From the sequence record MZ826699.1: DNA of 50,751 nt, one strand, 5' to 3'. Both the position numbers and the translations under genes were made by a program. The stretch's first letter is position 1. The number at the start of each line of letters is the position of its first letter. The notes under the pieces are model-generated. The model searched no databases. It was not told the origin of the DNA and was given only the letters and a program-made list of their open reading frames with translations. Of the stretch, positions 3,869-41,021 are shown piece after piece. The DNA is from Escherichia phage P817.

Positions 3869-4112
3869 TTCTGCTTCCTCGTTCGTTTCGATGGGGTAAC
3901 TATACAGCTACCCCGATTATGAGTTTTAACAAAAAGTGCTATCGTTGGTGATTTCGTGCAATCTTTTTCAACGCCAACCATATTTTAAAGCTGAAAATTT
4001 CAGGTTTTGTGAATCGTCGCTTCCCGTACTGTCGGCAAAGGCGGCGAACTCGTCGCTTATCAATCCACAGGTCAGTAATTATCTTTTCTGATTTGATTAG
4101 CTTCATGACTAT

Positions 4113-4272: not shown

Positions 4273-4429
4273 AAGCACCCCTTTTGTTTTCAGATTGTGG
4301 CGGTAGAGCTGCATAACATGCCCATTGTGATGATTGCTTGATGGATACTCTTTCATATCGCTTTCCTCTCGTTTGGTGTGAACTAACTATAACAAAACCC
4401 GCCGGAGCGGGTTTAGCAATTCGTGCTAT

Positions 4430-7906: not shown

Positions 7907-8069
7907 TTAGTATCTCCCTTGTTGGTATGAAAGAAGTATACCAGTCAGGGAGAATATCGTTTTAGCAATTCGTGCTATTTGACCACAACTAGGAAGATTA
8001 TCACCAGGAACAGAAGCGCCCAGGATAACCCAACAAGAAGCAATTGCAGCACGTCAACTAATTTGAACT

Positions 8070-9651: not shown

Positions 9652-9715
9652 TTCCTCTTCGTTGTTGATAGGGTAATCATAGCTGACTACCCGATTTATT
9701 GTTTAGCAATTCGTG

Positions 9716-10279
9716 CTATTCACCGTTCAGGAGTGATTTAGCTTTCCGATAAAACTCGACAGCCTTTCTGACCTCATCTGCATCATAGCCATGAATCATG
9801 TCTGAGCTTGCCTGCAATTTGCTATGAGATTTGCGCTCAACCGATCTCCATGGGTCGCACCACTTGTGAATGTCTCTCCCATACATGCCCACCAGGTATG
9901 GATGTGCATATATCTTGTCACCAATAAGGCAAATGATTCCCGCGTCCTGTAGTGATGGTAGGATGTTGTCAATCAGGTTATTCATTACTCCATTACGCTC
10001 GACGAACGGCTGGACCTTTCTGATCGCCTCATATGTTGAGCGAACTCCCACAACGCCTTTTCCATTTGTCGCTTGCTTCCAGATCTTTTCAACCACGACG
10101 CATTGTTCACGATTTAGGTTTGCGCGACGCATAACTTCCACTTCGCACCAGTACTTTTGTGACTGTCGGTATCCGTTAGCATTGATTGCAACTCGTAGTG
10201 GTTCAAGCCCATCTTCCGTAGCAATCTCCATAATCTGCTCATCCGTCAATTTGTCCTCGTTGAAGTCAAACATCCCCAT
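9716..10279 (-). CDS. domain-deleted paralog of the 527-aa P-loop protein (N- and C-terminal segments only)
   Basis: MFDFNEDKL..LRVAINANGYRQSQ and NGKGVVGVRS.YEA.RKV.PF...CLIGDKIY shared with ORF 13772..15355; central P-loop region absent. Confidence 0.55.
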   Translation of the reverse strand: MGMFDFNEDKLTDEQIMEIATEDGLEPLRVAINANGYRQSQKYWCEVEVMRRANLNREQCVVVEKIWKQATNGKGVVGVRSTYEAIRKVQPFVERNGVMNNLIDNILPSLQDAGIICLIGDKIYAHPYLVGMYGRDIHKWCDPWRSVERKSHSKLQASSDMIHGYDADEVRKAVEFYRKAKSLLNGE

Positions 10280-12172: not shown

Positions 12173-12352
12173 ATGGGGAATCGGTTCAGCAAAAGACGGC
12201 TGTTACGCAATGGTGATATTGCCAGGGTTCAGCAAAATGCTGCTGTTGCGTTCGGTAAAGCGGCACGTCAGAACCTGACTGGTTATCAGCCATGCATAAC
12301 GCCGACGCCGTTTTACGTGCATAAGCAGCGACCACCAAAAAGCCGTAAATAG
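12173..12352 (+). CDS. hypothetical basic protein
   Basis: In frame of track ORF 11996..12352; stop TAG lies in intergenic box. Confidence 0.25.
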   Translation: MGNRFSKRRLLRNGDIARVQQNAAVAFGKAARQNLTGYQPCITPTPFYVHKQRPPKSRK

Positions 12353-12430
12353 CACGAATTGCTAAACGAAGCCTCACGGATTGAGGCATAATAATTTCAT
12401 CGAAACGAAGTACACAAAGAGGAAGTAAAA

Positions 12431-13122: not shown

Positions 13123-13283
13123 TGCTCAAGCCATCTGAGATAAACTACTTCGATCTTGAAGTCATTAGTGCCTATAGCGGAAAGGGATGGCCATGCGGTG
13201 ATTTGTTTAACGAGGATTTGCTTGAGAGCCATGAAACAATGCTCAAAGCGATAGAGAAAGCACGAAATAGCACGAATTGCTAA
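13122..13283 (+). CDS. hypothetical small protein (53 aa)
   Basis: Read by eye; ATGA overlap with previous ORF; stop inside intergenic box. Confidence 0.3.
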   Translation: MLKPSEINYFDLEVISAYSGKGWPCGDLFNEDLLESHETMLKAIEKARNSTNC

Positions 13284-13346
13284 AGCCCTTCGGGGCTTTT
13301 CCTGTATATTGATCTCATCGAAACGAAACACAAAAAGGCAAACAAA

Positions 13347-17833: not shown

Positions 17834-17904
17834 GATTGAATCCTCTGTGAGTGAGGTATGAATATAGCGCCTTCCGGCGCTACAGTGTTAGGCAATTCGT
17901 GCTA

Positions 17905-19844: not shown

Positions 19845-19914
19845 GGTGATTCCTCGTCTCGTTGGTATGAAAGAAGTATACCCGCGCGGTGGCGGGTATG
19901 TTTAGCAATTCGTG

Positions 19915-20154
19915 CTATTGGTTAAAATCTTCAGGGCAATCTTGCTTATACTCTAGAAGGTCTTTTTTAATAGACTCTCCCCATGAATTTACCGGATTGC
20001 CTTTAACCTCATCAAACGACATGTCGAGAGATCCGGAGAAATTCCACGCATCACCTTTAAACCCTGCCGCCTTAAGCTTTGTGCAAACAATACCTCTAAA
20101 TAAAAGGAACTGACCATCTTCATTTAAATTAACTTTCTTATTCATATTAAACAC
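19915..20154 (-). CDS. hypothetical protein
   Basis: 79-aa ORF, AT-rich. Confidence 0.4.
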   Translation of the reverse strand: MFNMNKKVNLNEDGQFLLFRGIVCTKLKAAGFKGDAWNFSGSLDMSFDEVKGNPVNSWGESIKKDLLEYKQDCPEDFNQ

Positions 20155-21149: not shown

Positions 21150-21215
21150 TTTGTTTTCCTTGGTTGGTTACTTCGTTTCGATGAGGTGATAATACACCAC
21201 CTCACTGATTCGTCT

Positions 21216-21644
21216 TTAGCAATTCGTGCTATTCAGCATATCAGCAACTGCTTTCTTGTATTCCTCCTGGCCGTACGCCACCGCCGCGAACCCGCCACGC
21301 TCTCGGACACGCCGGAGGAACTCTTTCTGCTCCTTGCTGACTGGTTTTGCCTTTCCTTTCCCGCTCTTATTTACTCGCTTCAATTCTATGGCCCCGAACG
21401 GGTATTTACCGAACGGGCCGAGAAGAAATACAAAATCACTAACACCCTTCAATAACCCGCTCTGAGAGTCAACAAGTGCTGAATGCATCGTCTTTACCCC
21501 CTCATTAACGGTGTGCCAGAATAATAGCTCTCCATGCCTAACTTTAGTCCAGGTCACGCAATCGACCTGGTGCTTGTTCTCTGTCCATGTATCCGATTTG
21601 TCTGGAGTGTAATATTCCAGGTAGTCGCCTTTGTCTGTGATCAT
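21216..21644 (-). CDS. VRR-NUC domain nuclease (PD-(D/E)xK)
   Basis: GVSDFVFLLGPFGKYPFGAIELKRVNKSGK...SKEQKEFLRRV pattern; immediately downstream of helicase. Confidence 0.55.
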   Translation of the reverse strand: MITDKGDYLEYYTPDKSDTWTENKHQVDCVTWTKVRHGELLFWHTVNEGVKTMHSALVDSQSGLLKGVSDFVFLLGPFGKYPFGAIELKRVNKSGKGKAKPVSKEQKEFLRRVRERGGFAAVAYGQEEYKKAVADMLNSTNC

Positions 21645-23743
21645 AAGTTACCGTCCAATCCAAAATCCTTACGTGAGATAATATCCTCACCCTTTGCATT
21701 CTTGCGGTGAGTTACCCGCACCGGATGCGCTATGTGGTGAGCATTGTTTAAAATCATTTTCGCACTTCTGTAAGCCGCCATTAATTTCGCGACCTTACTG
21801 TCATGCACATGAGGCAATACCCCTTTTTGTTTCCATATCGTGTGACATACCTGCGCCGTTGATTGAGGGAAAAACTTCTCATACGCGATGAAGTTAACTC
21901 CCACTGAGTCTGTCAGGTCGTACCGATAAAGAATACCAGTCTGATTACGTGTCAGAGTTACTTCAAAGCTGTTAACTGTGCACCAGTCGTTTTTGGTGTA
22001 AGCCTTACCAGTCAGGTTATCATTTGGATCTTTCAGGCTAACGTCGCAGCAACGGCATATTCTCGCCACTACGTCATTCTCAGCGCCACACCCCTTAACG
22101 ATAACCTCGCCAGTGCGATCATCAATTTGGTCTTCGCAGATACGAGACTTCCAGAAATACTCACAACGATTGCCATTTTCGTCTCTGTGAATGCAGCGGC
22201 GGGCGTAAAAACTGTTCTCTGTTCCGCACAGTTCACATTTTTTCGGTTCTTCCTTACCATCAAATCGGCGCTGGTACTGAGCCTCTTCAAGAATAGGATC
22301 GAAGTAAAGCTGACCAAGCTCATCCATAGTGCCAGCGAAATCCCATACCAGGTGATCTTTCTTCACCATTCCCATCGCTTTTTGCCACGGCTTAAGCAAT
22401 CGCATACCTCTACCAAGCAACTGTATTAGAAGGGTAAGCGAGCCGATCTTGCGAAGTATTACCGAAAAATCCCAAAACGGAACGTTAACGCCAGTGGTTA
22501 GCGCTACCACCTGGAATATGTATTTGATCTCGCCACGGTTCGCCGCCTCCAGTATCGCTTGTCGTTTTTTGGTGTTCGTCTTCTCCGTGATGATCTCATA
22601 GGTAGCGTCAGGTGGCAGATAGCTCGCCGCCTCTTTGCAATGGCGCTGGCCTGCGCACGTAATCAGTACGCCATTTCGCTTTTTCGCTTCCTCTACGACC
22701 ATCCCCATAATTCGCTTTGTCATGCTGGCGTTGTCATGGATTTTCTTTTCCATCGCCTTCATTTCTTTCTGGCTAAAATCTGCCGTCCCGTCCTGGCCTG
22801 ATGCCTTGAACTCATCCAGATCATATCCAGCGTCACCGACACTTCCGAAAATGGTTGGGACAACAGAGCCGAACTCAATAAGGTAGCTGGTGTCGATGTT
22901 AGTAACCTGCTCACGCCAGAACCCGGGTAACTTAGGGTTATCGACAACAATCGGAGTTGTGCCTCTGAACTCAGAACCAGTCATGCCGAAGATTCGCAAT
23001 TCCTTCCCGTTCTTCTCTTTGCAGCGGCGCATCAATTCAGTGATAATGATCGTGTACTGGCTTCGTTTGGTTCCAAGAACAGGCTCGCCAGTCTTCCGGC
23101 TTATCAGTAATTGCTTATCCATAACCTGAACGCCAACCTCTACGCCATCAAGGTATCCATTGACATAGCCCTCGCTGTTTTTCGGGTAGTCAACGAATAC
23201 ACGCTCATCCTTTTCAGTGAGCATCATCTCAATCGTTTCTTCGTTGTCGATGGCGGCGGCAAGGTCTTCCCAATCCACCTGGTGACATTCATCAATCCCA
23301 AGCACCATGGGCGTAAAGTCACCAAGCGCCTTAAACAGACCGTTTGCAACCGAACCTTCCGATCCAACAACGATGGGGAAGTAAGCTGATTTTGTGTTCA
23401 GGCCAGCACAGTAAACTGAGTTAGGAACGCCGAAGTTTGAGATTTCTTCACTATCCTGAGCAACAATGTCGCCCTGGCGTGCAAGAATCATCATCGATAA
23501 GCCCATCTCTTTGACGCGCGATGCGATCATGGCAAAGCCGATTGTCTTACCTGCCGACACTGACGCCTTAACGATGAATGGATGCTTATAGCGAGCAATG
23601 CGCTTGCCGATCTCGTCATACATTACGCACTGATATTCATAAGGAACCATGTCACCGAACGTGAATTTATCCTGAATCTCTTTAATCTTCTGCGGTCCGA
23701 GTTCTTCTATCTGTTTTTTAATGGATTTAATGCGCATAGCCAT
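21641..23743 (-). CDS. superfamily 2 DEAD/DExH-box helicase with C-terminal Cys-rich zinc-ribbon-like region
   Basis: Walker A SVSAGKT, motif II GIDECH; C-terminal CELCGT...CIHRDENGNRCEYFW. Confidence 0.8.
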   Translation of the reverse strand: MAMRIKSIKKQIEELGPQKIKEIQDKFTFGDMVPYEYQCVMYDEIGKRIARYKHPFIVKASVSAGKTIGFAMIASRVKEMGLSMMILARQGDIVAQDSEEISNFGVPNSVYCAGLNTKSAYFPIVVGSEGSVANGLFKALGDFTPMVLGIDECHQVDWEDLAAAIDNEETIEMMLTEKDERVFVDYPKNSEGYVNGYLDGVEVGVQVMDKQLLISRKTGEPVLGTKRSQYTIIITELMRRCKEKNGKELRIFGMTGSEFRGTTPIVVDNPKLPGFWREQVTNIDTSYLIEFGSVVPTIFGSVGDAGYDLDEFKASGQDGTADFSQKEMKAMEKKIHDNASMTKRIMGMVVEEAKKRNGVLITCAGQRHCKEAASYLPPDATYEIITEKTNTKKRQAILEAANRGEIKYIFQVVALTTGVNVPFWDFSVILRKIGSLTLLIQLLGRGMRLLKPWQKAMGMVKKDHLVWDFAGTMDELGQLYFDPILEEAQYQRRFDGKEEPKKCELCGTENSFYARRCIHRDENGNRCEYFWKSRICEDQIDDRTGEVIVKGCGAENDVVARICRCCDVSLKDPNDNLTGKAYTKNDWCTVNSFEVTLTRNQTGILYRYDLTDSVGVNFIAYEKFFPQSTAQVCHTIWKQKGVLPHVHDSKVAKLMAAYRSAKMILNNAHHIAHPVRVTHRKNAKGEDIISRKDFGLDGNL

Positions 23744-23827: not shown

Positions 23828-24310
23828 GTGATGAAAATGAATGCAAATGATAAGCGTACTCTTAACGGTAACAACGGAACTATCCGCACGGAAGATAAGA
23901 AGCAGCGCAAACGACCGTCAGGTTACTATGTTCTCAAGGATGAAGTAAAGGCCGGATTAAGAGCGCGACTTGATATTGTGTTTGAGTTCTACGGCAGCAA
24001 GGCGAACATGGCGAAACAATTAAAAGTTACTCGCCAGGCCGTTGAGGAATGGTTTAAGCGTGGGATGATGTCGGCCCGTGGCGCTCAATTGGCGCACAAC
24101 CGATACAAGCGAACTGGCGAAGGGTTCCGCGCTACATTCTGCCGACCGGATCTCCAATTCGATGGAAATGGAAAGCCGCTGACACTCCGGTGCAAAAAAC
24201 GTCACATGCTGCGCGTTGTTACTGAGGCTGAATTAGCTACTAAGCCAGAATGTCGATCGTGGCGCAAGATTAAGGCCGCTAACGAAGCAGCACGGAAAGC
24301 TAAAGAATAA
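23828..24310 (+). CDS. putative HTH DNA-binding protein
   Basis: Candidate HTH ANMAKQLKVTRQAVEEWFKRG; basic protein; first gene of a rightward unit. Confidence 0.4.
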   Translation: MMKMNANDKRTLNGNNGTIRTEDKKQRKRPSGYYVLKDEVKAGLRARLDIVFEFYGSKANMAKQLKVTRQAVEEWFKRGMMSARGAQLAHNRYKRTGEGFRATFCRPDLQFDGNGKPLTLRCKKRHMLRVVTEAELATKPECRSWRKIKAANEAARKAKE

Positions 24311-24362: not shown

Positions 24363-25304
24363 TTGAACGAGATGTTCCAGAAAGAAGAAGTGCTGCCGTA
24401 CATGAAGGGATTATGGCGTGAGGCGTTACAATCCATTTGTGGCTTGCAATCCGGCGTGTTCAATAAGAAGCACCAGCCATGCCCACACTGTGGCGGCACT
24501 GATCGCTTCCGTTGGACTGATAACATTAACTCACCTGGTGATGGTGGCGCTGTATGTAACCAGTGCGGGAGCGACTCCGGAGTTGGCTGGATGATGAGGC
24601 TGACTGGTGAGCCTTACAGTGAGGTTATTAACATTCTTGGTCGATTCCTTGGTAAAGTTCCGCAGGATTACAAAGCTAAGGCTTACCGCAGGGCGTCTCG
24701 CGTACCGGAGAAAGGCCTTGGCAAGATGGCGGATCATGAGTCGTGCGTATCTGTAATGGAGCGCACAGAAAAGCGCGAGAGCACCGATTTAAGCGTGTAT
24801 GAGTGCCTAACCGAAGATTCATATGATGTTGGCGTAAAAGTGCGTCAGGATGGCACTGAGGAGCTAATACACGCATTACCGTGCTACATGGTCCACCATG
24901 ACGGAATTGATGAGGATATGTGTAACGTCATGTTTGCTTATGATAATGGCGAATACACTTTCCTTGCGCGTGATTATTCTCGCGGCTCAGTGGTTAAGCT
25001 GGGGAGTGGCGAGGATGATGCAGCTATATATATGACAAGCGATCTGATTGATGGTTATCGTGTGAAGATGGCGACCAGTCAGGAAGTGTGGGTGACTTTC
25101 TCCCCTGAGAATCTTGAGATTGTTGCTTATCGGTATCGAGGAGATCGAGAGTTGCGCGTTGCGTGTCCGGCTGATGATTTGCGAACGCTTTACATGGCAG
25201 ATGAACGTGATTTAAAAGTTGTAGTGCCGAACGGCGGAAACTTCAAAATGGGCCTTGAGAGAAAGTTATATACGCCGCAGGATCTGATAGATAAGTATTC
25301 ATGA
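24363..25304 (+). CDS. putative DNA primase (N-terminal zinc ribbon)
   Basis: CPHCGGTDRF...CNQCG zinc-ribbon pattern as in primase-helicase zinc-binding domains; TTG start after GGAG. Confidence 0.45.
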   Translation: MNEMFQKEEVLPYMKGLWREALQSICGLQSGVFNKKHQPCPHCGGTDRFRWTDNINSPGDGGAVCNQCGSDSGVGWMMRLTGEPYSEVINILGRFLGKVPQDYKAKAYRRASRVPEKGLGKMADHESCVSVMERTEKRESTDLSVYECLTEDSYDVGVKVRQDGTEELIHALPCYMVHHDGIDEDMCNVMFAYDNGEYTFLARDYSRGSVVKLGSGEDDAAIYMTSDLIDGYRVKMATSQEVWVTFSPENLEIVAYRYRGDRELRVACPADDLRTLYMADERDLKVVVPNGGNFKMGLERKLYTPQDLIDKYS

Positions 25305-25399
25305 CAATTACCCGCTACGGAGGGTTTTTTTATGCCTTACGTAATGCTATACTGCACTTTAGCAATTCGTGCTAAACACCAATATAGGAGTTGATTATT

Positions 25400-27901
25400 A
25401 TGGCAATTTATGACTTAGGAACTGCGTCGCTAGCCGCAAATGGCGAGGTGACTGGTATCGGTACAACATGGAAAGCACCTCTTACACTGATTCGAGTTGG
25501 TGCTACCATTGTTTTCAAAACTGAACCAGTACAGATTTACACCATCTCAGAAATTATCAGCGACACTCAGATTAATGTTTACAATCCAAATTCTGAAACT
25601 GTTCCTGCCGGGACTGGTTACGCGATTCTTGCTCACGATGGAATTACCGTTCAGGGGTTGGCTCAGGATGTTGCAGAAACCCTTCGTTACTATCAGTCGA
25701 GTGAGACAGAAGTTGCAGATGCTGTTGATGCATTTAACAATTTTGACTCTGCTGATTTTGAATCAAAGGTAACGCAGGTAAACACGCAGTACGGTGATGT
25801 TGTTACGATTGCAGAACAGGTAAACACGAAGTACGGTGATATTGTTACGATTGCAGAACAGGTTTCAAGTGATGCATCATCATCACAAATTAACGCCACC
25901 AATGCATCATCTTCCGCCGATAGAGCAGAGGCGGCGGCAAACTCTGTGTCTGGAACATTAACTTTAAGCTTCTCCGATGGAGGAACGGTAGAGTCTAAAA
26001 GACAACAGGTTTTATACATCAATGGAAATGAGGTTAAATCTTATGTCTGGACTGGATCATTACCAAAGACTTTTCCAGTCGGTTCAACTCCTGAAACTTC
26101 CGGTGGTGTTGGTTTAGGTGCGTGGGTTATTGTTGGCGACGCATCGCTGCGCAGTGACTTAGCAAAAACAAATGGTGCAGGATTAATCGGAGGTTTATCA
26201 AAACCGATTACGTTCTGGGGTGCTGTAGGTGATGGTGTTACAAATAACACATCAGCATTCAATTCTGCTGAGGATTCACAGTTTAATGATATATACATAC
26301 CTGAAGGCAACTTTAAGGTTGATAATATTACCTTTAATAAACGATATTGGGGTCCAGGGATTGTGGTAATCGATCACAAATCTGATTTCACTGGCGTGGG
26401 AATTAACGACATGACCGTGTCAGGAATATACAATGGACAGCAAGATCTAAATGCAATTGTAAGAATAAAGGAAGCTTCAAATCCTGATAAGCTTGAATTC
26501 AGTACAGACAATGGAGTTACATGGCATGACACGATAGACGTGTACAATCCAATCGATGACAGTGTATCTCCGCAACCAATCGTAATACTTGCAGGCGGGG
26601 TGGATTTTTTCGTAAGTGGATTGAAGATAAGCTTTTCTTCAACCACTGGACATACAGCAAATGACTCATGGTCATTTTTAATTCCTTCCAATCCATCAGT
26701 AATAAACACAGGAAGTGGTAGCATCGTTAAATCAGGAAGCATTATTTTTAATGTTAGTGGAAACAATGACACTAATACTTCCGCTGGAAAAGACTCATTA
26801 GGCGGTGGAAACGTAGGAGCTAACAATACCGCATATGGGTGGAAGTGCTTATACTCAAACACTACAGGATACGCAAATACCGCGTCTGGGATTCAGTCTA
26901 TGGAAAACAATAAGACTGGTAAAAACAACTGTGCATACGGTGCTGATTCTCTAAGAACTAACGTATCTGGTTCTGATAACGTAGCTGTTGGGGTCTTTGC
27001 GTCAGGAGCAAACACAACAGGGTACGGTAACACTGGACTTGGTAACGATGCCAATAGGTACAATGAAACAGGATTCGGAAATACCGCAGCGGGTGTGCAG
27101 GCACTGTACCACAACAAGGCCGGTAATGAGAACACAGCTTTCGGTGAATACGCATTACGCGGCGGAAGTTCCAGTATGCCTACGGGAACATCTGTTCAGT
27201 ATTTCGTGGCTGTAGGGGCTAAAGCTGGTTTCAACGCGTTAGGTAATAACAACACTGCTATCGGATACGAGGCGCTATATGCGGCCTCAGGTGCAAATAA
27301 CGTTGGAGTTGGGTTTGACGCAGGATTCAAAGTTACCGACGGGTCTTTCAATATATTTTTAGGGGCATCGTCAGGCAACGTTACTGGGCAGGCCGAGCAC
27401 GTCCATAACTGTGTTCTTCTTGGTGATAGTACGAAATCAACGGGGAGTAACGCGGTTGCTATCGGTAGCGGGGTAACTGCGGCGCAAAACACGATCGCAA
27501 TCGGCAACAGCTATCACACAGACATTTTCCATTACGGAAATTTAAAGCCGCAATTAGATAACACCTTTAGTATAGGAAGTTCTTCTGCAAGGTACACACA
27601 AGTTTACGCGACCAACGGCACCATTAATACATCTGACGAGCGGTTAAAAACACCACTCGATTTCGACCTGTTAGATGCTGAAAAAAGAGCCGCCGCTGAG
27701 ATAAAAAAACATATCGGTAAATTCAGGTGGTTAGACCATGTTGGTAGTAAAGTGCATTTTGGTGTTGGCGCTCAGGCAGTGGAGCGAATACTAACTAAAA
27801 ATGGACTTAACAGTAACGACTACGCTTTCCTTGTAAAAGAAAATGGTTCTTATGGTATTAACTACGGGGAGTTGGCTATGTTTATATTAATGGCGATTTA
27901 A
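25400..27901 (+). CDS. tail fiber with C-terminal intramolecular chaperone (S74-type) domain
   Basis: N-terminus MAIYDLGTASLAANGEVTGIGTTW; Gly/Asn-rich repeats; C-terminal SDERLK...FGVGAQAVERIL motif; start ATG after AGGAG. Confidence 0.7.
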   Translation: MAIYDLGTASLAANGEVTGIGTTWKAPLTLIRVGATIVFKTEPVQIYTISEIISDTQINVYNPNSETVPAGTGYAILAHDGITVQGLAQDVAETLRYYQSSETEVADAVDAFNNFDSADFESKVTQVNTQYGDVVTIAEQVNTKYGDIVTIAEQVSSDASSSQINATNASSSADRAEAAANSVSGTLTLSFSDGGTVESKRQQVLYINGNEVKSYVWTGSLPKTFPVGSTPETSGGVGLGAWVIVGDASLRSDLAKTNGAGLIGGLSKPITFWGAVGDGVTNNTSAFNSAEDSQFNDIYIPEGNFKVDNITFNKRYWGPGIVVIDHKSDFTGVGINDMTVSGIYNGQQDLNAIVRIKEASNPDKLEFSTDNGVTWHDTIDVYNPIDDSVSPQPIVILAGGVDFFVSGLKISFSSTTGHTANDSWSFLIPSNPSVINTGSGSIVKSGSIIFNVSGNNDTNTSAGKDSLGGGNVGANNTAYGWKCLYSNTTGYANTASGIQSMENNKTGKNNCAYGADSLRTNVSGSDNVAVGVFASGANTTGYGNTGLGNDANRYNETGFGNTAAGVQALYHNKAGNENTAFGEYALRGGSSSMPTGTSVQYFVAVGAKAGFNALGNNNTAIGYEALYAASGANNVGVGFDAGFKVTDGSFNIFLGASSGNVTGQAEHVHNCVLLGDSTKSTGSNAVAIGSGVTAAQNTIAIGNSYHTDIFHYGNLKPQLDNTFSIGSSSARYTQVYATNGTINTSDERLKTPLDFDLLDAEKRAAAEIKKHIGKFRWLDHVGSKVHFGVGAQAVERILTKNGLNSNDYAFLVKENGSYGINYGELAMFILMAI
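25778..25861 (+). repeat. 42-bp tandem duplication inside tail fiber gene (VNTQYGDVVTIAEQ / VNTKYGDIVTIAEQ)
   Basis: Two adjacent near-identical 42-bp units. Confidence 0.8.
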
Positions 27902-28138
27902 AAAACCTACTGAAAAAGTGTTAATCACACTGACAATAACGTGCATCGTAATTGATGCACGTTAAACCTACCTGATAGTTATTATGCCTTCATGACGGTT
28001 CCATGCTCTGAAAAAGCATCTCAACAAGTCAGTTGTCAGTTTTTTCTTTGCGAGTAATTTGAGTTAAGAAGCAGTCAACCTTACTTTCTATTTGGGAGAC
28101 AACATTTGTTTCATTAACTAATTCAACATAATTTTGAC

Positions 28139-28170
28139 ACCCCACTAGCTTCAGTGGGGTTATTTTTATC
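28139..28170 (+). terminator. intrinsic terminator (CCCCACT-AGCTTC-AGTGGGG + TTATTTTTAT)
   Basis: Perfect 7-bp GC stem followed by U-tract. Confidence 0.65.
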
Positions 28171-30430: not shown

Positions 30431-30970
30431 CTCTTTAATCCTCGTTCGTTGTTGATGCTGGTAACTATACGCGCTTGGTTGCGTTAGTCAAGTGGTTACA
30501 TGTAGATATTTGTAATCACGTGTATGCAATGGCGTCAGTTACATAAAATGGCTATCCAGACCAGCTATAGCTTGATGTAAACGGCGTGTATATCGTGTAT
30601 ACCATTTTTCGCGGAGGGTGCATTGGTGTATGCGTGATTAGATACTGTATGAATATACATATTAGAAATTTATAAGCGGAACACTCTATAGAAGTAGTTA
30701 CACGATATACACAGTAATATATATAATAATAATAATTATAGTAGAAGGTTGATATATATAGATATTTTAATGTAACTATCGCGTAACTAGGCGTAACTGC
30801 GCGTATATCATTTTTCGCGGACGAGATTGCATACATCGAGTTACATCGGTTACGTGTATATAGTTGCATTTTCATACTTGACACCAAAAAGCACGAATTG
30901 CTAAAGCTCAATTAATGGTTAGTGTATAGTTACCTCATCGAAACGAAAAACACTTAATAAGGATTCAAAA
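30431..30970. promoter_or_regulatory. AT-rich divergent control region homologous to 10801..11519
   Basis: Shares TGGTTACATGT and about 70 bp ...AATAATAAT...GATATTTTAATGTAAC... with region 1; internal repeats GCGTAACT x2 and TATATC...ATTTTTCGCGGA x2. Confidence 0.45.
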
Positions 30971-31213
30971 ATGACTAACTTAATCAAACTTTCAATCATC
31001 GCCGCAGCAGCAATCATGATGGTAGGTTGTTCTTCTGGTCCTCGTCCTGATGGTTGGTGTGCAACGCAATCAAACGGAGTGTGCGTGGCTAAATGGAAAA
31101 ATGGTGTGGTTGTTCCAGCTGGTGAAGTTGATGTTCGCTACGCTGGTATTGAATCAAAAGCAGGTGGAGGCTACGGCGGTTCAGTTGCAGATCACGGCTC
31201 TAAGGAGTGGTAA
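30971..31213 (+). CDS. lipoprotein, candidate Cor-like superinfection exclusion protein
   Basis: 80 aa; [20 protein letters not shown] lipobox; next to tail-tip J-like gene region. Confidence 0.45.
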
Positions 31214-31214
31214 G

Positions 31215-32177
31215 ATGGGGCAGGGTATATTGATCGATCTTAACGATGGAAGGCCAGCTATGGAGATAACAGCAGGATTGAGAGCACCTGCCGTGACTGG
31301 TTCGATAAATACTAACGGGCTTTCTACTCCGGCTAACTCATGGGATTTTGGATTATCCATGTCACCTGGCTCAACGGCTTTCTGCCTACCAACAAAGGCG
31401 GTCCACGTTGATGCTTACGATGTAATACCAGAAGTGTATTATATGAACGGATTTCAAAAGGTTAATGATGGTATAGGAAGGATAACGCTCAGTAACTTCA
31501 ACGGTGCCAATGGTCGAATAATTGACTTTGGAGGTAACTGCTTTGAAATACTACCAGCCTCACCCTCATCAAGTCCAGGGATACTAGTTGAAAACTCAAC
31601 TGACTTCCTGGCAATATCAAGCAATTCAAGGCTAATGTCTGCGGCATGGGTTGGTGGGATTCAGGTAAATGGTGCTGCGTCACTTCCTGTCAGCGGAATC
31701 CCTTTCGGTAAGTGGGATAACCCAAACGTGTCGCTTGAAAGTGATGGAAGTACGATATGGTGCAGGGATTCAAACTACGGCGGGATTGATGACGTTGGGG
31801 CTAGCACTTACGTCCAGTTGGTTATATTCAGAAATGAGCCGCCGCCAGCAGGTCCAGGGCTTACAATGTCAAACGGATCTGGTCAGATTGTATTCTCTAG
31901 TGTTCGAAGGCCTTTCGTTCTTGGTGGGTTCATTCAGATTAACAATGGATACCAGTCAATCAATGGTGGATTCTTCCCGCTTCTTAGATGCGGCGCTACG
32001 ACTAGAGTTACAGGTGGGTATAACAACCTTAGGTATAAGGGTGTTTGCATGTCAGGAGGCTCTGTCAGGTCTGTTCCTGGCTCTGTAATAGGTAACTACT
32101 CTACTCAGACTGGCGCACAATTCCCATTCGACACAAACATATCAATGGCACTTCCATTTATTCCTAACTTCTACTAA
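31215..32177 (+). CDS. Gly/Asn/Ser-rich protein, possible receptor-binding or tail-associated protein
   Basis: Start ATG after GGAGTGG; 320 aa; co-transcribed with lipoprotein. Confidence 0.35.
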   Translation: MGQGILIDLNDGRPAMEITAGLRAPAVTGSINTNGLSTPANSWDFGLSMSPGSTAFCLPTKAVHVDAYDVIPEVYYMNGFQKVNDGIGRITLSNFNGANGRIIDFGGNCFEILPASPSSSPGILVENSTDFLAISSNSRLMSAAWVGGIQVNGAASLPVSGIPFGKWDNPNVSLESDGSTIWCRDSNYGGIDDVGASTYVQLVIFRNEPPPAGPGLTMSNGSGQIVFSSVRRPFVLGGFIQINNGYQSINGGFFPLLRCGATTRVTGGYNNLRYKGVCMSGGSVRSVPGSVIGNYSTQTGAQFPFDTNISMALPFIPNFY

Positions 32178-32204: not shown

Positions 32205-35200
32205 TTACCACGTACCAACTACTACCCTACCCCCATTTGGCAAGTTAACCGTGATTCCGTTATTGTTTATGACAACAGTATTGTTTGTTCCGTTAAAGGC
32301 GAAGTTACCGTTACTGGCGTACAAACTACCACGAACTGTTGCGTTGTTTAACTCCGCCGCTCCTGACTTATCAATAGCCCACCCCTGACTTCCTTGAACG
32401 TAGTTGTTAGATTGGATCCTGTTACCAATCTTCGCGTTCGTGATTGAACCGTCCTTGATCACAGCGCTCTGGATGAACACCTGGTTGCTCTCAACAACAA
32501 AAGGCAATGCCCACTGACCGGAACCAGATCCAACCCCATTACTGATTGCGAATCTGTTTGCGTCAAAGATGAACTGACTCTTAACACCAGCACCGCTGCC
32601 AACAAGTTCCATGCTCATCCCTGCACTATACTCAACCCCATTGTATTTTAGTCCTAACTTAACGCCGTACTGAGCGCCAGCGGATTCCGCATCCACCCAG
32701 GAATCAAGTTTTTCATTCAGTGCTGCCTGAGTATCTCCAAGCTGAGCACTTAAAGCAGTGTCTGCAGTAGTCCTTGCTTCCGTTTCGGTGGCTAGTGCCG
32801 TCTGAACTTCAGTTATGGAGGCGACAACCTCATCATCAATCTGCGCTTTAAGCTGCGTGAGAGCCTCTACGCGCGCCTGAGTTTCATCAGCAATAAGATT
32901 CACCGCCTGAACGTATTCAGCCTTACGCTTGCCGTTTTCCTTTGTCATTCGTCGCACGTCCGTGTCGTTTGCAATGGCGTTCTCAAGAATTGATTCCGCC
33001 TGCGCCTGAATAGCTCCGTTTGACTCAATGGCGTTCTGCTGTAGGTACTTAAACCCTTCGGAATTCTCAATATCTACCTTAATTTCACCAATGATCGATT
33101 CCACGTCATCACTAGCCATTCCTCGAACAATGTCAGACCAGTCAGAGACGTTCCCGATCCTGTCAACCAATCTCGCCCTGTACCAGTTCACATATCCTGC
33201 TGGTAATGTTGAGTGCCAGTACTCGTACTGAGGGTATGGGATCATTGTTAACAGGCTTGCGTTCTCCTCGCCTGTGTGACCTCCCGCTCCATTATCTGGT
33301 ATCTGCTGCAACTCAGTGTAGGCAGTGTCGCCAGAACCTTCGGGGAAACCCCATTTAACCCGTATCCCAAACACCTGGTCGTCAGATGCAGTTATGACTG
33401 TTGGTTTATCTGGCTTCCCAATCTTACCCGTCAATCCGACGCTGACAACTTCAGACCATGGAGACGTGTTTCCACCGCTTGAGATGCTCCTTACGCGTAC
33501 GTGATAATTACCAGCATAAATCCCTTCAACCTCAACCTCTGAGTTGGCTGTGCGCGGTACGTTCATCCAGTTTCCGTTATCCTTGCGCCATTGCACATCG
33601 TACTTGCTTGCGTACTGAACTTTATCCCATCCTACCACCATTGTTTCTACGCTCATTCCCTGCACAATTCTAGAGTATGATGAAACGACAATGTTTTTAG
33701 GTGGCTGCATGTTGTCAGGATCTACAATACTGGTTGGTCGGTCATCAATATTTACGCCGTAGTCAATCTCGTCGTATTTGTTCGGATCGTATTCAACTGC
33801 CGTAATGCTGTACGTGAACTCATCGTCGCCGTCTCCCTTCGTGATTCCTGTTACAACGTATTGCTGCAAGGCCACATCAGTGCGGTCGATTGCGAACACT
33901 GTGTTGGGTTGAACATCAAAGCCGAATCCAACGTTAAGCTCAATGGTTTTCCCGTCAGCAGACACTTTTGAAATCGTCCGACGCACCGGATTTCCGTCAG
34001 CCTTGTTCACGATAATGAAATCACCAGCGCGCGCATCGACCTTAAAGTGTGTGAACACTTGCAGGCCTGACACTTCCATCACACGACCTGATAACGAAAG
34101 CGTCAGGTTACTTGACCAGAAGTTATCAGCGATTGCTACCACGTCGCCAATCATCGGAATCATACCCTCAAGGCCAGTAGCAAAACTCACCGTCGTGCTG
34201 CGAAGGTTTGTTTTGAGAACCCAACGGCCCCGTCTATTCGCTTCACTGCGTCGAGTGCATCCGATCGCCGTGATGCTTGTCGGGTTATGGCCGAAGCGCA
34301 ATGAAGCGTTAAGGTCGAACACCCCCTCAATGTCTTGGCTGTACATGTTCTGCTCATCGTCGAACGTGACGTTGCATGTTGTGTACATGCTTTTTTCACT
34401 TGCGAACGTATAGGCAAATGAGCCATCAACGACGTTATCGTTAGTAAAAATATACGACGCCTCTCTCGGTCGGTCGATGACAATTGAAAGGCTCTCGCCG
34501 TTCCAGAAGCTCATTCCTCGGAATATTGAGCAAATATCTCGAACCAGATTGTAAGCCTCAACCTGAGACTGGATTACCACGTCGCAAAGGTAGCGAGGCT
34601 CCAAACCTCCGTGACCGTCAGGAACTTTCTGATCGCAGTATTGACCAGCATCATATAGCGACCACTTATCGACCGCGATCCCCAGCTCTCTTTGGTCGAG
34701 TCCGTATCTCTGATTGGTGATCAAATCATAAAGCACCCACGCCGGATTATTTGACCATGCTTTTTTAAAACTCCCATCCCATGTGCCGTTATACTCTCGA
34801 AGCTCTGGATTATAGTTGCTCGGAACGTTAATGAGCTTCCATTTCTTTTTCGTGCTAATGCTTGGGATTTGCGGGAATAGATCGCTGTTAAACTCGACGT
34901 AAACAAGACCAGTCAGAGGGTAACGGAATTTAGCATCAACCACTTCGGCATAAGACTGAATGTTTATCGCATCAACGACGCGCGCATCAGTTGAATCAGC
35001 CGTAACGCGTCGCACACGCAATAGAACCTGACTATTGAACGTTGGGAGGTCGATTCGTTTTGTTTTGTCATATCCGCTAATTGTCTTACCGTCGATTACG
35101 TCTGATAAAACTTCCTGGTAGTTCCCGCCATCAACCGCCATATCTACGGCCCACTTCACGACCACGCCGACCATATCTCCGTTTTCTTTCGTTGTAACGC

Positions 35201-35585
35201 CGCGAGGCATAAGGATTTTTACGCGGACGGCTGATAGCTGTTTATTCGTTACCGAGATCACGTAAGGCGTCGTTGTTTTCAATTCACGGCCTACAGTGAA
35301 CTCAGCCGCCGTGTCGTTGAAGCCTTTGATGTAATCCTGAGTCTGCGTACCAGGTCGGAACTCAGCCGTTACGCCTTCATAGTTAACCTCGCCGGATGGT
35401 GCAATTACAGGAACATCATTAAGATATAAGTCCTTTAATGAGAAATTCGCGTCAACCTCGCCATCACTAACAGCGAGCAAAACCTTAATCTTGTTGATTG
35501 AGATCAGGTTGTCTTCCATCTCCTGTGGGGTATGAGGTTTGCTGCTCCCACCCTTTCGGCCCGTCACTACACTATTTTTAATCAT
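32205..35585 (-). CDS. central tail fiber / host specificity protein (lambda J-like)
   Basis: 1126 aa; N-terminus GRKGGSSKPHTPQEMEDNLISINKIK resembles lambda J N-terminus; follows I/K/L/M-like genes. Confidence 0.8.
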   Translation of the reverse strand: MIKNSVVTGRKGGSSKPHTPQEMEDNLISINKIKVLLAVSDGEVDANFSLKDLYLNDVPVIAPSGEVNYEGVTAEFRPGTQTQDYIKGFNDTAAEFTVGRELKTTTPYVISVTNKQLSAVRVKILMPRGVTTKENGDMVGVVVKWAVDMAVDGGNYQEVLSDVIDGKTISGYDKTKRIDLPTFNSQVLLRVRRVTADSTDARVVDAINIQSYAEVVDAKFRYPLTGLVYVEFNSDLFPQIPSISTKKKWKLINVPSNYNPELREYNGTWDGSFKKAWSNNPAWVLYDLITNQRYGLDQRELGIAVDKWSLYDAGQYCDQKVPDGHGGLEPRYLCDVVIQSQVEAYNLVRDICSIFRGMSFWNGESLSIVIDRPREASYIFTNDNVVDGSFAYTFASEKSMYTTCNVTFDDEQNMYSQDIEGVFDLNASLRFGHNPTSITAIGCTRRSEANRRGRWVLKTNLRSTTVSFATGLEGMIPMIGDVVAIADNFWSSNLTLSLSGRVMEVSGLQVFTHFKVDARAGDFIIVNKADGNPVRRTISKVSADGKTIELNVGFGFDVQPNTVFAIDRTDVALQQYVVTGITKGDGDDEFTYSITAVEYDPNKYDEIDYGVNIDDRPTSIVDPDNMQPPKNIVVSSYSRIVQGMSVETMVVGWDKVQYASKYDVQWRKDNGNWMNVPRTANSEVEVEGIYAGNYHVRVRSISSGGNTSPWSEVVSVGLTGKIGKPDKPTVITASDDQVFGIRVKWGFPEGSGDTAYTELQQIPDNGAGGHTGEENASLLTMIPYPQYEYWHSTLPAGYVNWYRARLVDRIGNVSDWSDIVRGMASDDVESIIGEIKVDIENSEGFKYLQQNAIESNGAIQAQAESILENAIANDTDVRRMTKENGKRKAEYVQAVNLIADETQARVEALTQLKAQIDDEVVASITEVQTALATETEARTTADTALSAQLGDTQAALNEKLDSWVDAESAGAQYGVKLGLKYNGVEYSAGMSMELVGSGAGVKSQFIFDANRFAISNGVGSGSGQWALPFVVESNQVFIQSAVIKDGSITNAKIGNRIQSNNYVQGSQGWAIDKSGAAELNNATVRGSLYASNGNFAFNGTNNTVVINNNGITVNLPNGGRVVVGTW

Positions 35586-35633
35586 GATGTTTAGCCTTTC
35601 GTGCGATTTATAGAAGATTCATTATACAGGCGT

Positions 35634-37760: not shown

Positions 37761-38108
37761 CTACACCGCTGTGAAGGCTTCTACAATGGTGCATTTTACG
37801 ACAAGAAGGCCTCGACCGATTGGCTGAGTATTCAGCGTGTCAGGCTTCAATAGGAAGACTCCGATCTTGTCCTCCGGCGGGGTAAAGGCAAAGGCTTTCA
37901 GTCTGTGCGATCGCAAAAATTCGCGCACCTCCTTCCAGTCCTTGCCAACGTAGCTGATTGCGTACTCTCGTCGCTCAGTGTTATAGCCAGACGATGCAAC
38001 CTGGCGGAATCCATTACCAAACTGCACCTGCCTGTCATTGTTGGTGACGGTCATCACACCGCCACCATCCTGAACCTGTACGCACCACTTGAAAACGTCT
38101 AGGGCCAT
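37761..38108 (-). CDS. minor tail protein (lambda M-like)
   Basis: 115 aa directly downstream of tape measure gene. Confidence 0.6.
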   Translation of the reverse strand: MALDVFKWCVQVQDGGGVMTVTNNDRQVQFGNGFRQVASSGYNTERREYAISYVGKDWKEVREFLRSHRLKAFAFTPPEDKIGVFLLKPDTLNTQPIGRGLLVVKCTIVEAFTAV

Positions 38109-38111
38109 TTA

Positions 38112-41021
38112 TTACGCTCCTGCTTTTCCGTTGATGTAATTGTAAACTTCGCCACCCTGTGAGCATGATTCCTGAATCATTTGCTTGAAAATCATTTTCA
38201 CGCCTTGCTCCATACCCTTCGGATCGCTACCGTTATTGATGCTAACAGGGATGCTTCCAATTGTCACGCCGCCAGCCATGATTGCACCGCTGCCGCCACC
38301 GCTTGAAGTTCCACCAACCATCCCGCCATTCGCATAACCTCGCATCATTCGATAAAGGTTATCGACGCCAATTCGCTTGGTGGCTTCCTTGGTCATGACA
38401 AATTCGCCCTTATGAACTGTGCCTGCTGGCTCATATTTTCCACCGTCTCCGGTATAGCCGCCAGTGGCGAACCAACCTGAGTTAGCGAAGGAGAACCCCT
38501 TGCCGCTGCCTCCGCCCATCATTCCTGATAGTGAGTTAAAGATTACCATCTGCGTGATCATCTTAATGATCTGGCTGATAATGCTTTTTGCAAAGTCTGC
38601 AAAGTTGGCCTGCCCCGTCATCAAGAACTCAGTCATCATGTCTGTCAAACCGTTCAGGGCGTTACTTGCGATATTTTCTACGTTTCCGTACATATCCATA
38701 GCACTCTCGCCGTAGTCCGCAAATGCTTTCTGCGCCCCAGCAAGCCAGTCTCCGCGCTTCTCATCCTCGTTGGCGTAATACTCGTTCTGCTTGTCAATCA
38801 TTTTCTTGAGCGCTTCATCATCCTGACCGCCGCCCTTAGCCATGTACTCCGCTCGGATCTTCTCAAGCTGAATCTGGCGCTCTGCCTCAAGTGTACCCAT
38901 GGCGCGCGTGGCGTTAAGGCTTTTGCTCGCTGCGTCAATCTGCATGATGAACTTCATTGAGTCGTCATTCAGTTTGTTGATCTGCTCCTGCTTAACAATC
39001 TGATCACCAAGCTCTGCCTTTTCCTTCGCCAACGAGAGCACCTTTTGCTGACTGGCAAGCAATGCTTTTTCCTCGTTGGTCAGCTTACGCTTACTCTGTG
39101 CATCCTGGAGGATTGAAATCTGAGCCTCAGTAGCCCACAAAGCACGGCGCTGGCTTGAGATCTTGTCGTTAATCGACTTGTGATCTTCCAAAACTTTAAG
39201 CTGAGCTTTGAGAACGTAAAGTTCTTTATCAAGCTGCTCGGTAGCGCCCTTGGTTACTGCGCCGTTGCTCTTAGTTTTCTTCCGGTTCTTTTCCTCAATT
39301 TCTTTAGCTTCCTTCGCTACGGCTTCCTTTGTTTCCTTGGCGTATTGCTTCTCAAGATCACGTCGGCCCTTAAGCGCATTGATGTAACCCATCTCGCCCT
39401 TTTCGACTCGCGCGTTAATAACATCCAGATCTTTTGCAAGGCTGTCGTAGGTGTCCTTGGAGTTCTTAACGATAGTCTGCTGTTCGTTGAGAATATCCTT
39501 ACCGAAATCACTCATACCTGGCAGGCTTTGCGTGGCCTTGATTGCAGAGGCGATAAAGTTAGAAATGTATTCGTCACCCTTGGCGAGAATCATTTTAACC
39601 TGAATCACCGTGCCGCTAACCACATCAATGATGAGGTTTAGAGCACCAAGCGTATGATCTCCAACCCACCCCCAGGCGTCTGATGACCATTTCTTAATGT
39701 CATTCCACATCTTTTCAAGCGGCGTTGCAGTACCTGCAATCTTGCTCATGCGTTCTTCCATGGTGTCGGCAAACAGCTTGGTCGCCTCCGTCACAGCTTC
39801 GGTTTCGCCCTTGGCTTTAACAATCCCGTTAATGTAGGTCAATTGACCTTTCTCAAGGAAGTTGTATTGCTCGTTCAGCTTCGCCAGTCCTTTTACCGGA
39901 TCATCTGCAATCTTGCCGAAGTCACTGATAATATCGCTCGTCGCTCGACCCGTTGCGGCTGACCATTCAGCGGTAGCGCGGGTAATATTCCTGATTTGGT
40001 CCTGAGTGTACTTACCACTTTTCGCAAGCTCAGTAGCAATTTCTCGCACAGATCCGATAGTCGCGTTGCTGGTATCCGCAATTTTGTTTGCAATCTGGTC
40101 AAGGTCCGCCGCGCTCGCCGCTGCAAATCCGCCAGTCTCAATCAAGGCGTTTTTCATATCTGTGATGGAGCGGTAGGAGTCGTAACCAGCTTTAGCAAGG
40201 CCAGCAAGTGCGATACCCATAGCGCCCATACCAACCGTTACCGGATTAAGGTAAGAAAGCAAAACTTTAAACGTATTCCCAACACCGCCGAACGAATCCT
40301 TGATCTGCCCGCCCTGCTGGATTGCAACCAGCCATACAGGCATACCGGAAGCAAGGGAGGTAACAACGTCAGTGATCTGCATTGGCAAGATGCGCAGCGC
40401 GTTCTTGTACTCGCCAGCGGAAAGGCCAGCCGCATTTGTCGCTACAGTCTGCTTGTTCATCGCTGCAATTAAAGGTGCGGCCTGAGTCGATACGCCAAGC
40501 TGTGCCGCCTTCAATTCGAGAAGCTCAGTCTTGGTCATTGTCGCAGCGTTAGCTTGTTCTTGCAGTGATTTAAGGAACCTGTCAGCGTCCTTTGTTGCCG
40601 CCTCTTTGGCTTTTGAGTTAGCCATAGCCGCACGGCCCTCTTCGGTCAGCGCCATCTTGGATCGGTTAAGCGCATTGATCTGAGTTTCAATCATGCTTGA
40701 CAGATTGAAGAACTCGGCGTCTGGAACGAGGCCTTTACTCCAGAGGTTATCCAGGTCAACGCTCGCCTTCTGCAACTGGCGCATTTTTCCGATTGTAGGA
40801 TCAATGGCTTTCTCTACGTCGGCAAATTCTTTCTTCTGGCGCTTAACCTCGTTGTTGAACTCTTTCATCTTCTGCTTTGCTACTTGCTCAGCATCAATGA
40901 AATTGTCAAAGCTCTTTCCGGCTGTGTTGTTCGCCCTGGATAAGTCATCCAGAGATTTAACCGCCGCATCAACCTGGGATACGTCAACCCCAAGCGATAG
41001 CCCTGCAAATTTATCTGTCAT
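38112..41021 (-). CDS. tail tape measure protein
   Basis: 969 aa, coiled-coil-rich with Gly-rich C-terminal region; follows G/G-T chaperone. Confidence 0.85.

Follow-up and report, generated by a model that had tools for sequence, protein, structure and literature searches.

The genome sequence of Escherichia phage P817 (MZ826699.1), of which a stretch of 50,751 nucleotides (nt) forms the window analysed here, carries at 25400..27901 on the plus strand a coding sequence (CDS) for a lateral tail fibre, an 833 amino acid (aa) precursor of 87.1 kDa. The CDS lies in a single long open reading frame (ORF) at 25391-27901 on the plus strand of the ORF list, in which the ATG at 25400, preceded by an AGGAG at 25386-25390, gives the 833 aa product. 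This protein matches PHROG tail fibre families and has three Pfam matches: Tail_spike_N at residues 189-247, the C-terminal (stalk) part of End_tail_spike at residues 675-744 and Peptidase_S74 at residues 745-802. A 98% identical protein (P0001) is present on six contigs, the largest of which is 50 kb long. The gene shares its strand with a Cro-like helix-turn-helix (HTH) gene (23828-24310) and a primase zinc-ribbon gene (24363-25304), and the tail module (gpJ, 32205-35585, onward) is encoded on the minus strand, its nearest point being approximately 4.3 kb downstream of the fibre gene. A preliminary description of the locus had drawn attention to the 833 aa tail fibre frame, an internal 42 bp duplication, Gly/Asn-rich repeats, a terminal SDERLK domain and the co-orientation with the HTH and primase genes, all of which are present as described. 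As a whole, these features are best explained by a lateral tail fibre gene of a T1-like siphovirus, the product of which consists of a family-specific virion anchor and a swapped cassette with S74 self-cleavage, has a binding role and is expressed from its own transcription unit; the probability of this explanation is put at roughly 0.85. The locus holds a new allele of a gene type that is well known and occupies its usual place in the family; it codes for a tail fibre with a predicted self-cleaving chaperone domain, and only two points are mildly new: the precise delimitation of a cassette found on four virion types, and an inverted regulatory repeat.

When the 24 kb around the fibre gene were compared by megablast, their matches were T1-like coliphages of the Drexlerviridae, with 60-82% of the query covered at identities of 87-93%, the relatives including GaoY1-9D, vB_EcoM_50EP, BUCT-XGG-1 and ESCO41 (genus Nouzillyvirus), and by this similarity the P817 stretch is assigned to a T1-like phage of the Drexlerviridae. 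Gene order was compared with that of five other T1-like genomes from several subfamilies: ESCO41, JulesPiccard/Bas03, T1, TLS and a 45 kb metagenomic contig (L006). All share an arrangement in which regulator, primase and fibre genes on one strand converge on ssb, an erf recombinase gene and an exonuclease VIII gene. The fibre gene at this conserved slot is gp48 in ESCO41, bas03_0037 (annotated as 'lateral tail fiber protein') in JulesPiccard/Bas03, ST26 in T1, where ST23-ST24-ST26 oppose ST27-ST29, and stf in TLS. Similarly, the lateral tail fibre locus of Drexlerviridae has been described among the BASEL phages as flanked by syntenic recombination and primase/helicase genes, with the 5' end alone of the fibre gene being conserved (Maffei et al. 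2021, S1C Fig, PMC8594841). That the fibre gene lies here is characteristic of the family, a fact known since the sequencing of the T1 genome, and, as slot and orientation are the same across the Drexlerviridae, its position is no sign that the whole gene was picked up recently. Yet it was from this position, which follows the orientation of the HTH and primase genes and not that of the structural operon, that the preliminary description had deduced a modular acquisition of host-range determinants. A recent insertion of the entire fibre gene into the replication region, which would place it away from the tail operon in just this way, is scarcely credible: although the distal part of the gene is indeed imported, the first 650-730 nt and both flanks are backbone sequence, and the identical position and orientation in all five comparison genomes, together with the conserved arrangement described in PMC8594841, contradict it.

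The backbone portion of the protein begins with a conserved virion-anchor domain of the Drexlerviridae (residues 1-110, 25400..25729), identified by homology and followed by a helical neck (residues 111-185, 25730..25954); these and all other features of the locus described below are on the plus strand unless stated otherwise. Residues 1-183 correspond to the N-terminal part of Depo32/DpK2, depolymerases of T1-like Klebsiella phages (7vyv, 7lzj; E 2.5e-32), named as an anchor and a helical-bundle domain in the Depo32 paper, and over its first 300-740 nt the gene shares 84-92% nucleotide identity with many Drexlerviridae. The same N-terminus, with its MAxYxxGxA start, is common to the 109 proteins retrieved, which are the sample for all counts of T1-type fibres. 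Similar N-terminal parts are also found in two further PDB entries, the tailspike or fibre structures 9VVR and 9LNA. The 42 bp duplication lies in the neck, where Tandem Repeats Finder reported one tandem array (25775-25863; period 42, 2.1 copies, 95% matches) encoding a 14-residue unit twice, as VNTQYGDVVTIAEQ / VNTKYGDIVTIAEQ, at residues 127-154. This unit is doubled in three of the 109 T1-type fibres, namely the P0001 cluster to which the P817 fibre belongs, P0008 and ESCO41 gp48, and is single in the other relatives; the duplication would represent a clade-specific lengthening of the neck coiled coil by two heptads.

Backbone and import meet in the Tail_spike_N (TSP1/gp66-type) adaptor domain (residues 189-247, 25964..26140; PF18668, E 2.9e-16). 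Nucleotides 1-730 of the gene are 92% identical to ESCO41 gp48, at which point the ESCO41 homology ends, and from nt 659 to the stop codon the gene has 93.7% nucleotide identity to a CDS (37768-39996) in the 72 kb genome of phage ST4, placing the recombination junction in the last third of the Tail_spike_N domain, with its conserved end (...GSTPETSGGVGLGAWV...). A 58 kb siphovirus contig (L005) matches from nt 648 of the gene to 119 nt past the stop codon. The cassette replaces the backbone from approximately 26047-26129 to approximately 28020, and includes a 3' flank (27902..28020) that was imported with it and is 89% identical to the sequence following the homologous gene on L005; on that contig, the flank overlaps the 3' end of a convergent gene of 842 aa. 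Within the imported flank is a hairpin with a 12 bp stem (27938-27963; -17.2 kcal/mol, z -7.35). ESCO41-type backbone homology is back only at approximately 28166, and the intervening 145 nt or so (28021-28165) are without a match in any of the sequences compared. The spacer after the fibre gene (27902-28165) is approximately 270 nt long, versus 35 nt in ESCO41.

Protein alignment showed that the body of the fibre (residues ~247-833) is fused to four kinds of N-terminus: the T1-type anchor, the TSP1/gp63.1 type, the P22 head-binding domain and the L005 type. The N-terminus of the ST4 protein matches CBA120 TSP1 and G7C gp63.1, and its gene is found in a structural cluster, with terminase, tail and tail-fibre genes upstream and holin, spanin, portal and coat protein genes downstream, an order that we take to be N4-like. 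Versions of the body with the P22 head-binding domain (P0003, P0005, P0006) show 77-83% aa identity, and in a P22-like prophage at argW (tRNA-Arg) of the avian pathogenic E. coli (APEC) strain APEC O2-211 the body forms part of the tailspike APECO2_RS18925 (L008 3599003-3601165), with approximately 85% nucleotide identity over the aligned part (75% of the query). The same receptor-binding body and chaperone occupy the gp63.1-type slot of G7C-like N4 relatives (ST4) and a P22-type tailspike, although these are podoviral proteins that differ from the P817 fibre in anchor (CBA120 TSP1/G7C gp63.1-type and P22 head-binding domain, respectively) and in virion architecture. Compared with the Drexlerviridae fibres in the GenBank phage collection searched, the distal 590 aa differ from every one, and at most 30% of the gene is covered by any Drexlerviridae record. 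Because the body is 94% identical at the nucleotide level to that of the podovirus ST4 and sits on four different virion anchors, the host-range body is judged, from these sequence comparisons, to be genuinely acquired as a module. The proposal of modular acquisition therefore stands for the distal three quarters of the fibre gene, on grounds that differ from the positional one first offered, which falls with the conservation of the slot.

The cassette ends in a Peptidase_S74 intramolecular chaperone domain, a type known from endoNF, T5 pb1 and GA-1 gp12 (residues 745-833, 10.0 kDa, 27632..27898), recognised through Pfam, PDB sequence matches and Foldseek, and preceded by a stalk end (residues 675-744, 27422..27631) homologous to the pre-cleavage beta-stalk of endosialidases and T5 pb1 (PF12219 positions 93-160, 29.6 bits). 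The profile PF13884 (Peptidase_S74) matches residues 745-802 with 25.9 bits versus a cut-off of 22, and the C-terminal 105 residues align with T5 pb1 plus chaperone (4uw8, E 1e-13), with K1F (3gw6) and also with 7y5s and 3gud. The motif SDERLK at residues 745-750 (27632-27649) contains the cleavage serine S745 (27632-27634) and the dyad lysine K750 (27647-27649), the +5 spacing of which is that of endoNF S911/K916 and MyRF S587/K592; likewise R731 (27590-27592), at -14, aligns with endoNF R897, the Arg that the beta-stalk of endoNF contributes to the cleavage centre from a position 14 residues ahead of the Ser. In 4uw7 and 5aq5, the mature chains of the T5 fibre terminate in ...NGTINT, which is aligned with residues 738-744, and the cut is therefore predicted between T744 and S745, giving from the 87.1 kDa precursor a mature chain of 77.2 kDa and a released domain of 10.0 kDa. 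In the 11 sequences of alignment A1, conservation is 90% or higher at S745 and R731, and Lys750 is preserved; in alignment A2 the equivalent Ser and Lys are invariant, and Ser, Lys and Arg are retained in homologues down to approximately 40% identity. AlphaFold2 models were made of monomers, leaving the trimeric shaft outside their reach, and the model of the body (residues 248-833, 586 aa) had an overall predicted local distance difference test score (pLDDT) of 72.8. In the model, the last 80 residues adopt a helix-strand-strand-helix-strand-strand-helix order (pLDDT 65-90), with which Foldseek recovered the S74 fold, an alpha/beta fold that typically ends in a trimerising helix, matching 4uw8 (E 6.5e-5) and, at probabilities of 0.99-1.0, 3gw6 and 3gud. 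The preliminary description had envisaged a self-cleaving chaperone domain of the T5/endosialidase type and suggested structure prediction of the C-terminus as a check; PF13884, the PDB alignments and the fold found by Foldseek agree in bearing this out, and the Ser/Lys dyad context is present in full, comprising S745, K750 and R731. By analogy with these relatives, S745/K750 would carry out a trimer-dependent autoproteolysis that releases the domain.

It could be argued instead that the S74 domain is a decayed remnant, the protein being uncleaved or dependent on a separate chaperone, since the domain is short (89 aa of an 833 aa fibre, versus 133 aa for the chaperone of the 1396 aa T5 pb1) and its Pfam score is a mere 4 bits over the cut-off. 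Such decay is very improbable, however, as homologues of 40-98% identity conserve the dyad together with the Arg at -14 and the C-terminal helix, the S74 fold is recovered by Foldseek and a separate chaperone ORF is absent downstream of the fibre gene. The T5 L-shaped fibre pb1 (4UW7/4UW8) resembles the P817 protein in being a side fibre of a siphovirus that carries an S74 chaperone at its C-terminus. The cleavage-site sequence ...NGTINT/SD(A/E)RLK is nearly identical in the two, whereas anchor and shaft are different and approximately 105 residues align. Reversible binding of O-antigen is taken to be the role in both cases (PMC8594841).

An S74 end is, as judged from their sequences, not unusual among Drexlerviridae fibres. 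The TLS stf protein at the same locus also ends in S74, with SDVRIK at residue 547, and an SDxRxK end was seen in 8 of the 109 T1-type fibres, one of them P0028, which is encoded on a syntenic contig. The fibres of T1 (ST26), TLS (stf), JulesPiccard (bas03_0037) and ESCO41 (gp48) share slot, anchor and neck with that of P817 but differ in their ends: Phage_tail_C_2 in T1, a pectate-lyase helix in JulesPiccard, another body in ESCO41 and S74 in P817, as in TLS. A '78 kDa structural protein' of TLS (PMC11447400) was considered as evidence of cleavage and rejected, as TLS stf has a mass of 74.1 kDa uncleaved and the gene numbering is ambiguous.

Between the adaptor and the stalk end, the body comprises a central domain and a shaft. 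The central domain (residues 262-437, 26183..26710) consists of a beta-helix cap and first rungs, followed by a beta-sandwich, and is marked by an Asp-box-like FSTDNGVTW and an invariant TGH...W. The Gly/Asn-rich region that follows (residues ~451-700, 26750..27499) is built of 17-residue repeats (NTAxGxxALxxNTTGxx), evident from composition and autocorrelation: G+N+S+T+A account for 58-70% of each 50 aa block, and the autocorrelation of G and N peaks at 17 and 34 residues. The repeats resemble those of the YadA-head type, homologues carrying the YadA-head repeat family PF05658, and in the AlphaFold2 model a short strand recurs every 17 residues (pLDDT 55-85); they presumably form the shaft of the fibre. 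When the whole 586 aa body model was compared with the PDB by Foldseek, the S74 part alone was recovered, the extended monomer being a poor query, and the central domain was modelled separately.

The nature of the central domain bears on whether the protein is a binding fibre or an active tailspike, that is, a glycan depolymerase or deacetylase with residues 262-437 as the catalytic module. The domain begins like those of pectate-lyase-fold tailspikes (PITFWGAVGDGVTNNT), homologue P0021 and others carry PF12708, the G-H, the W and the Asp-box-like SxDxGxTW are invariant, and the fibres of relatives at this locus are often beta-helix enzymes, for example those of JulesPiccard and Depo32. However, within its 176 aa the approximately 90 residues of the cap and first rungs are those that align to beta-helix tailspikes, with Z no higher than 8.2, compared with a beta-helix of approximately 370 aa and 12 rungs in Depo32 (Depo32 paper). 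The complete right-handed parallel beta-helix of a pectate-lyase-fold depolymerase, with some ten or more rungs and a catalytic groove, was not found; no beta-helix, esterase or sialidase catalytic family of Pfam matched the fibre protein, and what remains of the body is a repeat shaft of the kind usual in fibres. As the central domain is far shorter than a catalytic beta-helix and no enzymatic Pfam family is present, a binding fibre is favoured by the sequence over a depolymerase, and an active tailspike is considered unlikely. An endosialidase, suggested by the PF12219 match and the Asp-box-like motif, was rejected: like endosialidase K1F/endoNF (3GW6), the P817 fibre has the Ser/Lys at +5, the Arg at -14 and the preceding stalk (the C-terminal part of PF12219), but stalk and chaperone alone are shared, the profile matching in the stalk part only. 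The sialidase catalytic domain, a GH58 six-bladed beta-propeller, is absent, there being no PF12217 match in Pfam and no propeller in the models.

The intergenic region between the primase stop and the fibre start contains three elements common to all five compared phages. The first, 6 nt past the primase stop, is a terminator-like hairpin with a run of seven T residues (25310..25331, ACCCGCTACGGAGGGTTTTTTT), the stem of which shows compensatory changes across ESCO41, JulesPiccard, L006 and T1 (alignment A4); in P817 it is weak, with one mismatch, -6.3 kcal/mol and a z of -1.6. The second is an extended -10-like element (25345..25353, TGCTATACT), a putative fibre-gene promoter by its resemblance to the consensus, the pattern TGnTAnAnT being found at the same place in five T1-like phages, T1 included. 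The third, 25 nt before the ATG, is an inverted copy of an intergenic repeat of the family (25359..25374, TTAGCAATTCGTGCTA), identified by repeat search and alignment A4. Drexlerviridae fibre loci thus have the same arrangement of upstream terminator, -10 element and repeat as P817. At the other end, an intrinsic terminator between the convergent fibre and ssb genes (28139..28169) has an 8 bp GC-rich stem and a T-run (-13.5 kcal/mol, z -3.95), and at the corresponding site of T1 a terminator is annotated on each strand. Because the terminator-like hairpin and the conserved promoter-like element separate the primase and fibre genes, the latter is probably not simply part of the primase operon, and it appears to be its own transcription unit, made up of terminator, extended -10, inverted repeat, CDS and terminator.

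The 16-mer TTAGCAATTCGTGCTA, with the core TAGCA-N5-TGCTA, has eight exact and three near copies in the window versus 0.56 expected, and can form a 7 bp hairpin. The copies are at 4413-4428, 7962-7977, 9703-9718, 12350-12365, 13268-13283, 17889-17904, 19902-19917, 21216-21231, 25359-25374 and 30889-30904, with a doubtful one, bearing three mismatches, at 35591-35606. In T1 there are 10 copies versus 0.05 expected. A 21-nt repeat with the consensus aaATAGCACnnnTTGnTAAAA has been described for TLS, T1, Rtp and Rogue1 by German, Kropinski, Misra and colleagues (PMC11447400), who found it approximately 76 nt upstream of start codons and pointing with transcription, and listed its function as an open question; the similarity of the two sequences identifies the 16-mer with this TLS repeat. 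Nine copies away from the fibre gene agree with this placement and orientation and have a -10-like TATAnT 21-23 nt downstream, at putative early or replication-region promoters, a pattern that the match at 35591 does not fit. The fibre-gene copy is the exception, being inverted relative to the others and lying between the -10-like box and the ribosome-binding site (RBS), and its inversion and spacing are conserved in T1 (L004 34903-34918), ESCO41, JulesPiccard and L006 (alignment A4). It is possible, if doubtful, that the 21-nt intergenic repeat controls the fibre gene as a transcription unit with a timing of its own; a candidate for the factor that would bind the repeat is the Cro-like regulator, the gene of which lies two genes upstream. 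A second element, TCATCGAAACGAA, has five matches versus 0.07 expected, at 12397-12409, 13315-13327 and 30935-30947 and, on the minus strand, at 21172-21184 and 3882-3894. It lies between the -10-like box and the RBS at five repeat-associated promoter-like sites, and may be a shared operator or 5' untranslated region element.

Two other regions of the P817 genome were compared with those of relatives. The 700 aa helicase gene (21641-23743) is intact in P817, and the equivalent stretch of ESCO41 (L003 3469-6063) is annotated as three genes, encoding a hypothetical protein, a double zinc ribbon protein and an HNH endonuclease, which suggests a homing-endonuclease insertion in that relative. The gpJ gene (32205-35585, minus strand) ends in a Phage_Tail_Tip domain and is followed by a convergent gene (31050-32177, plus strand) for a DUF6453 protein, a PHROG 'membrane protein', an arrangement also found on contig L006. 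A separate receptor-binding-protein gene, as described for many Drexlerviridae, is not present directly downstream of gpJ. From this arrangement, gpJ itself would be the protein that binds the terminal receptor, and the DUF6453 protein may be a candidate for superinfection exclusion.

Taken together, sequence and homology establish the first part of the route from gene to fibre. Residues 1-185 are the family anchor and helical neck, which would attach a trimer to the tail, and the Tail_spike_N adaptor (residues 189-247) doubles as a homologous crossover point. The stretch from this domain to approximately 120 nt past the stop constitutes an exchangeable cassette, carried also on N4/G7C-type, P22-type and other siphovirus anchors and ending in the Peptidase_S74 domain with S745, K750 and R731. 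Reasoning from T5 pb1 and endosialidase K1F, the C-terminal domains would bring three 87 kDa precursor chains into register, and the repeat shaft and stalk would fold from the C-terminal end. The Ser-Lys dyad would then cut between T744 and S745, releasing the 10 kDa chaperone, leaving a 77 kDa mature chain and exposing the receptor-binding surface. Reversible attachment to a surface polysaccharide is the most likely role of the mature fibre, and binding without cleavage of the polysaccharide is favoured because there is no complete depolymerase fold; this attachment would make adsorption faster, ahead of the engagement of the terminal receptor by gpJ.

A plausible source of that polysaccharide is suggested by the hosts in which the fibre body occurs. 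Among 5426 complete E. coli genomes it was found in two, both from chicken isolates (APEC O2-211 and NZ_CM142764.1), and the closest phage relatives of P817 are likewise from poultry or APEC hosts. The carriage by chicken isolates and the poultry and APEC relatives therefore point to a surface glycan of avian E. coli; the O-antigen of avian-type E. coli is a plausible receptor, possibly O2, and the APEC O2-211 prophage offers a starting guess.

Several considerations weigh against this account of the fibre. Its incorporation into virions, trimerisation and cleavage are predicted, and the structure models are of single chains, with moderate confidence (a pLDDT of 72.8 in the case of the body). 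The invariant His, Trp and Asp-box residues of the central domain could mark an undetected enzymatic site, the single lead towards O2 is the occurrence of the same body in the APEC O2-211 prophage, and the weakness of the upstream terminator in P817 makes read-through from the primase gene possible.

In annotations, the product should be given as a lateral tail fibre that has a Peptidase_S74 chaperone, and no anomaly should be seen in where the gene lies. The cassette, with crossovers at the end of the Tail_spike_N domain and approximately 120 nt past the stop codon, represents a clean, natural plug-and-play receptor-binding module on four virion chassis, which would be useful for engineering the host range of T1-like phages, although the practical value of the finding is modest. 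As for the repeat, if one phage factor binds all of its copies, it could activate early promoters while holding back the fibre promoter, or the reverse. Were this true, it would explain how a virion gene situated among replication genes is expressed at the right time, and would provide a handle on the question that was left open for TLS and its relatives (PMC11447400).

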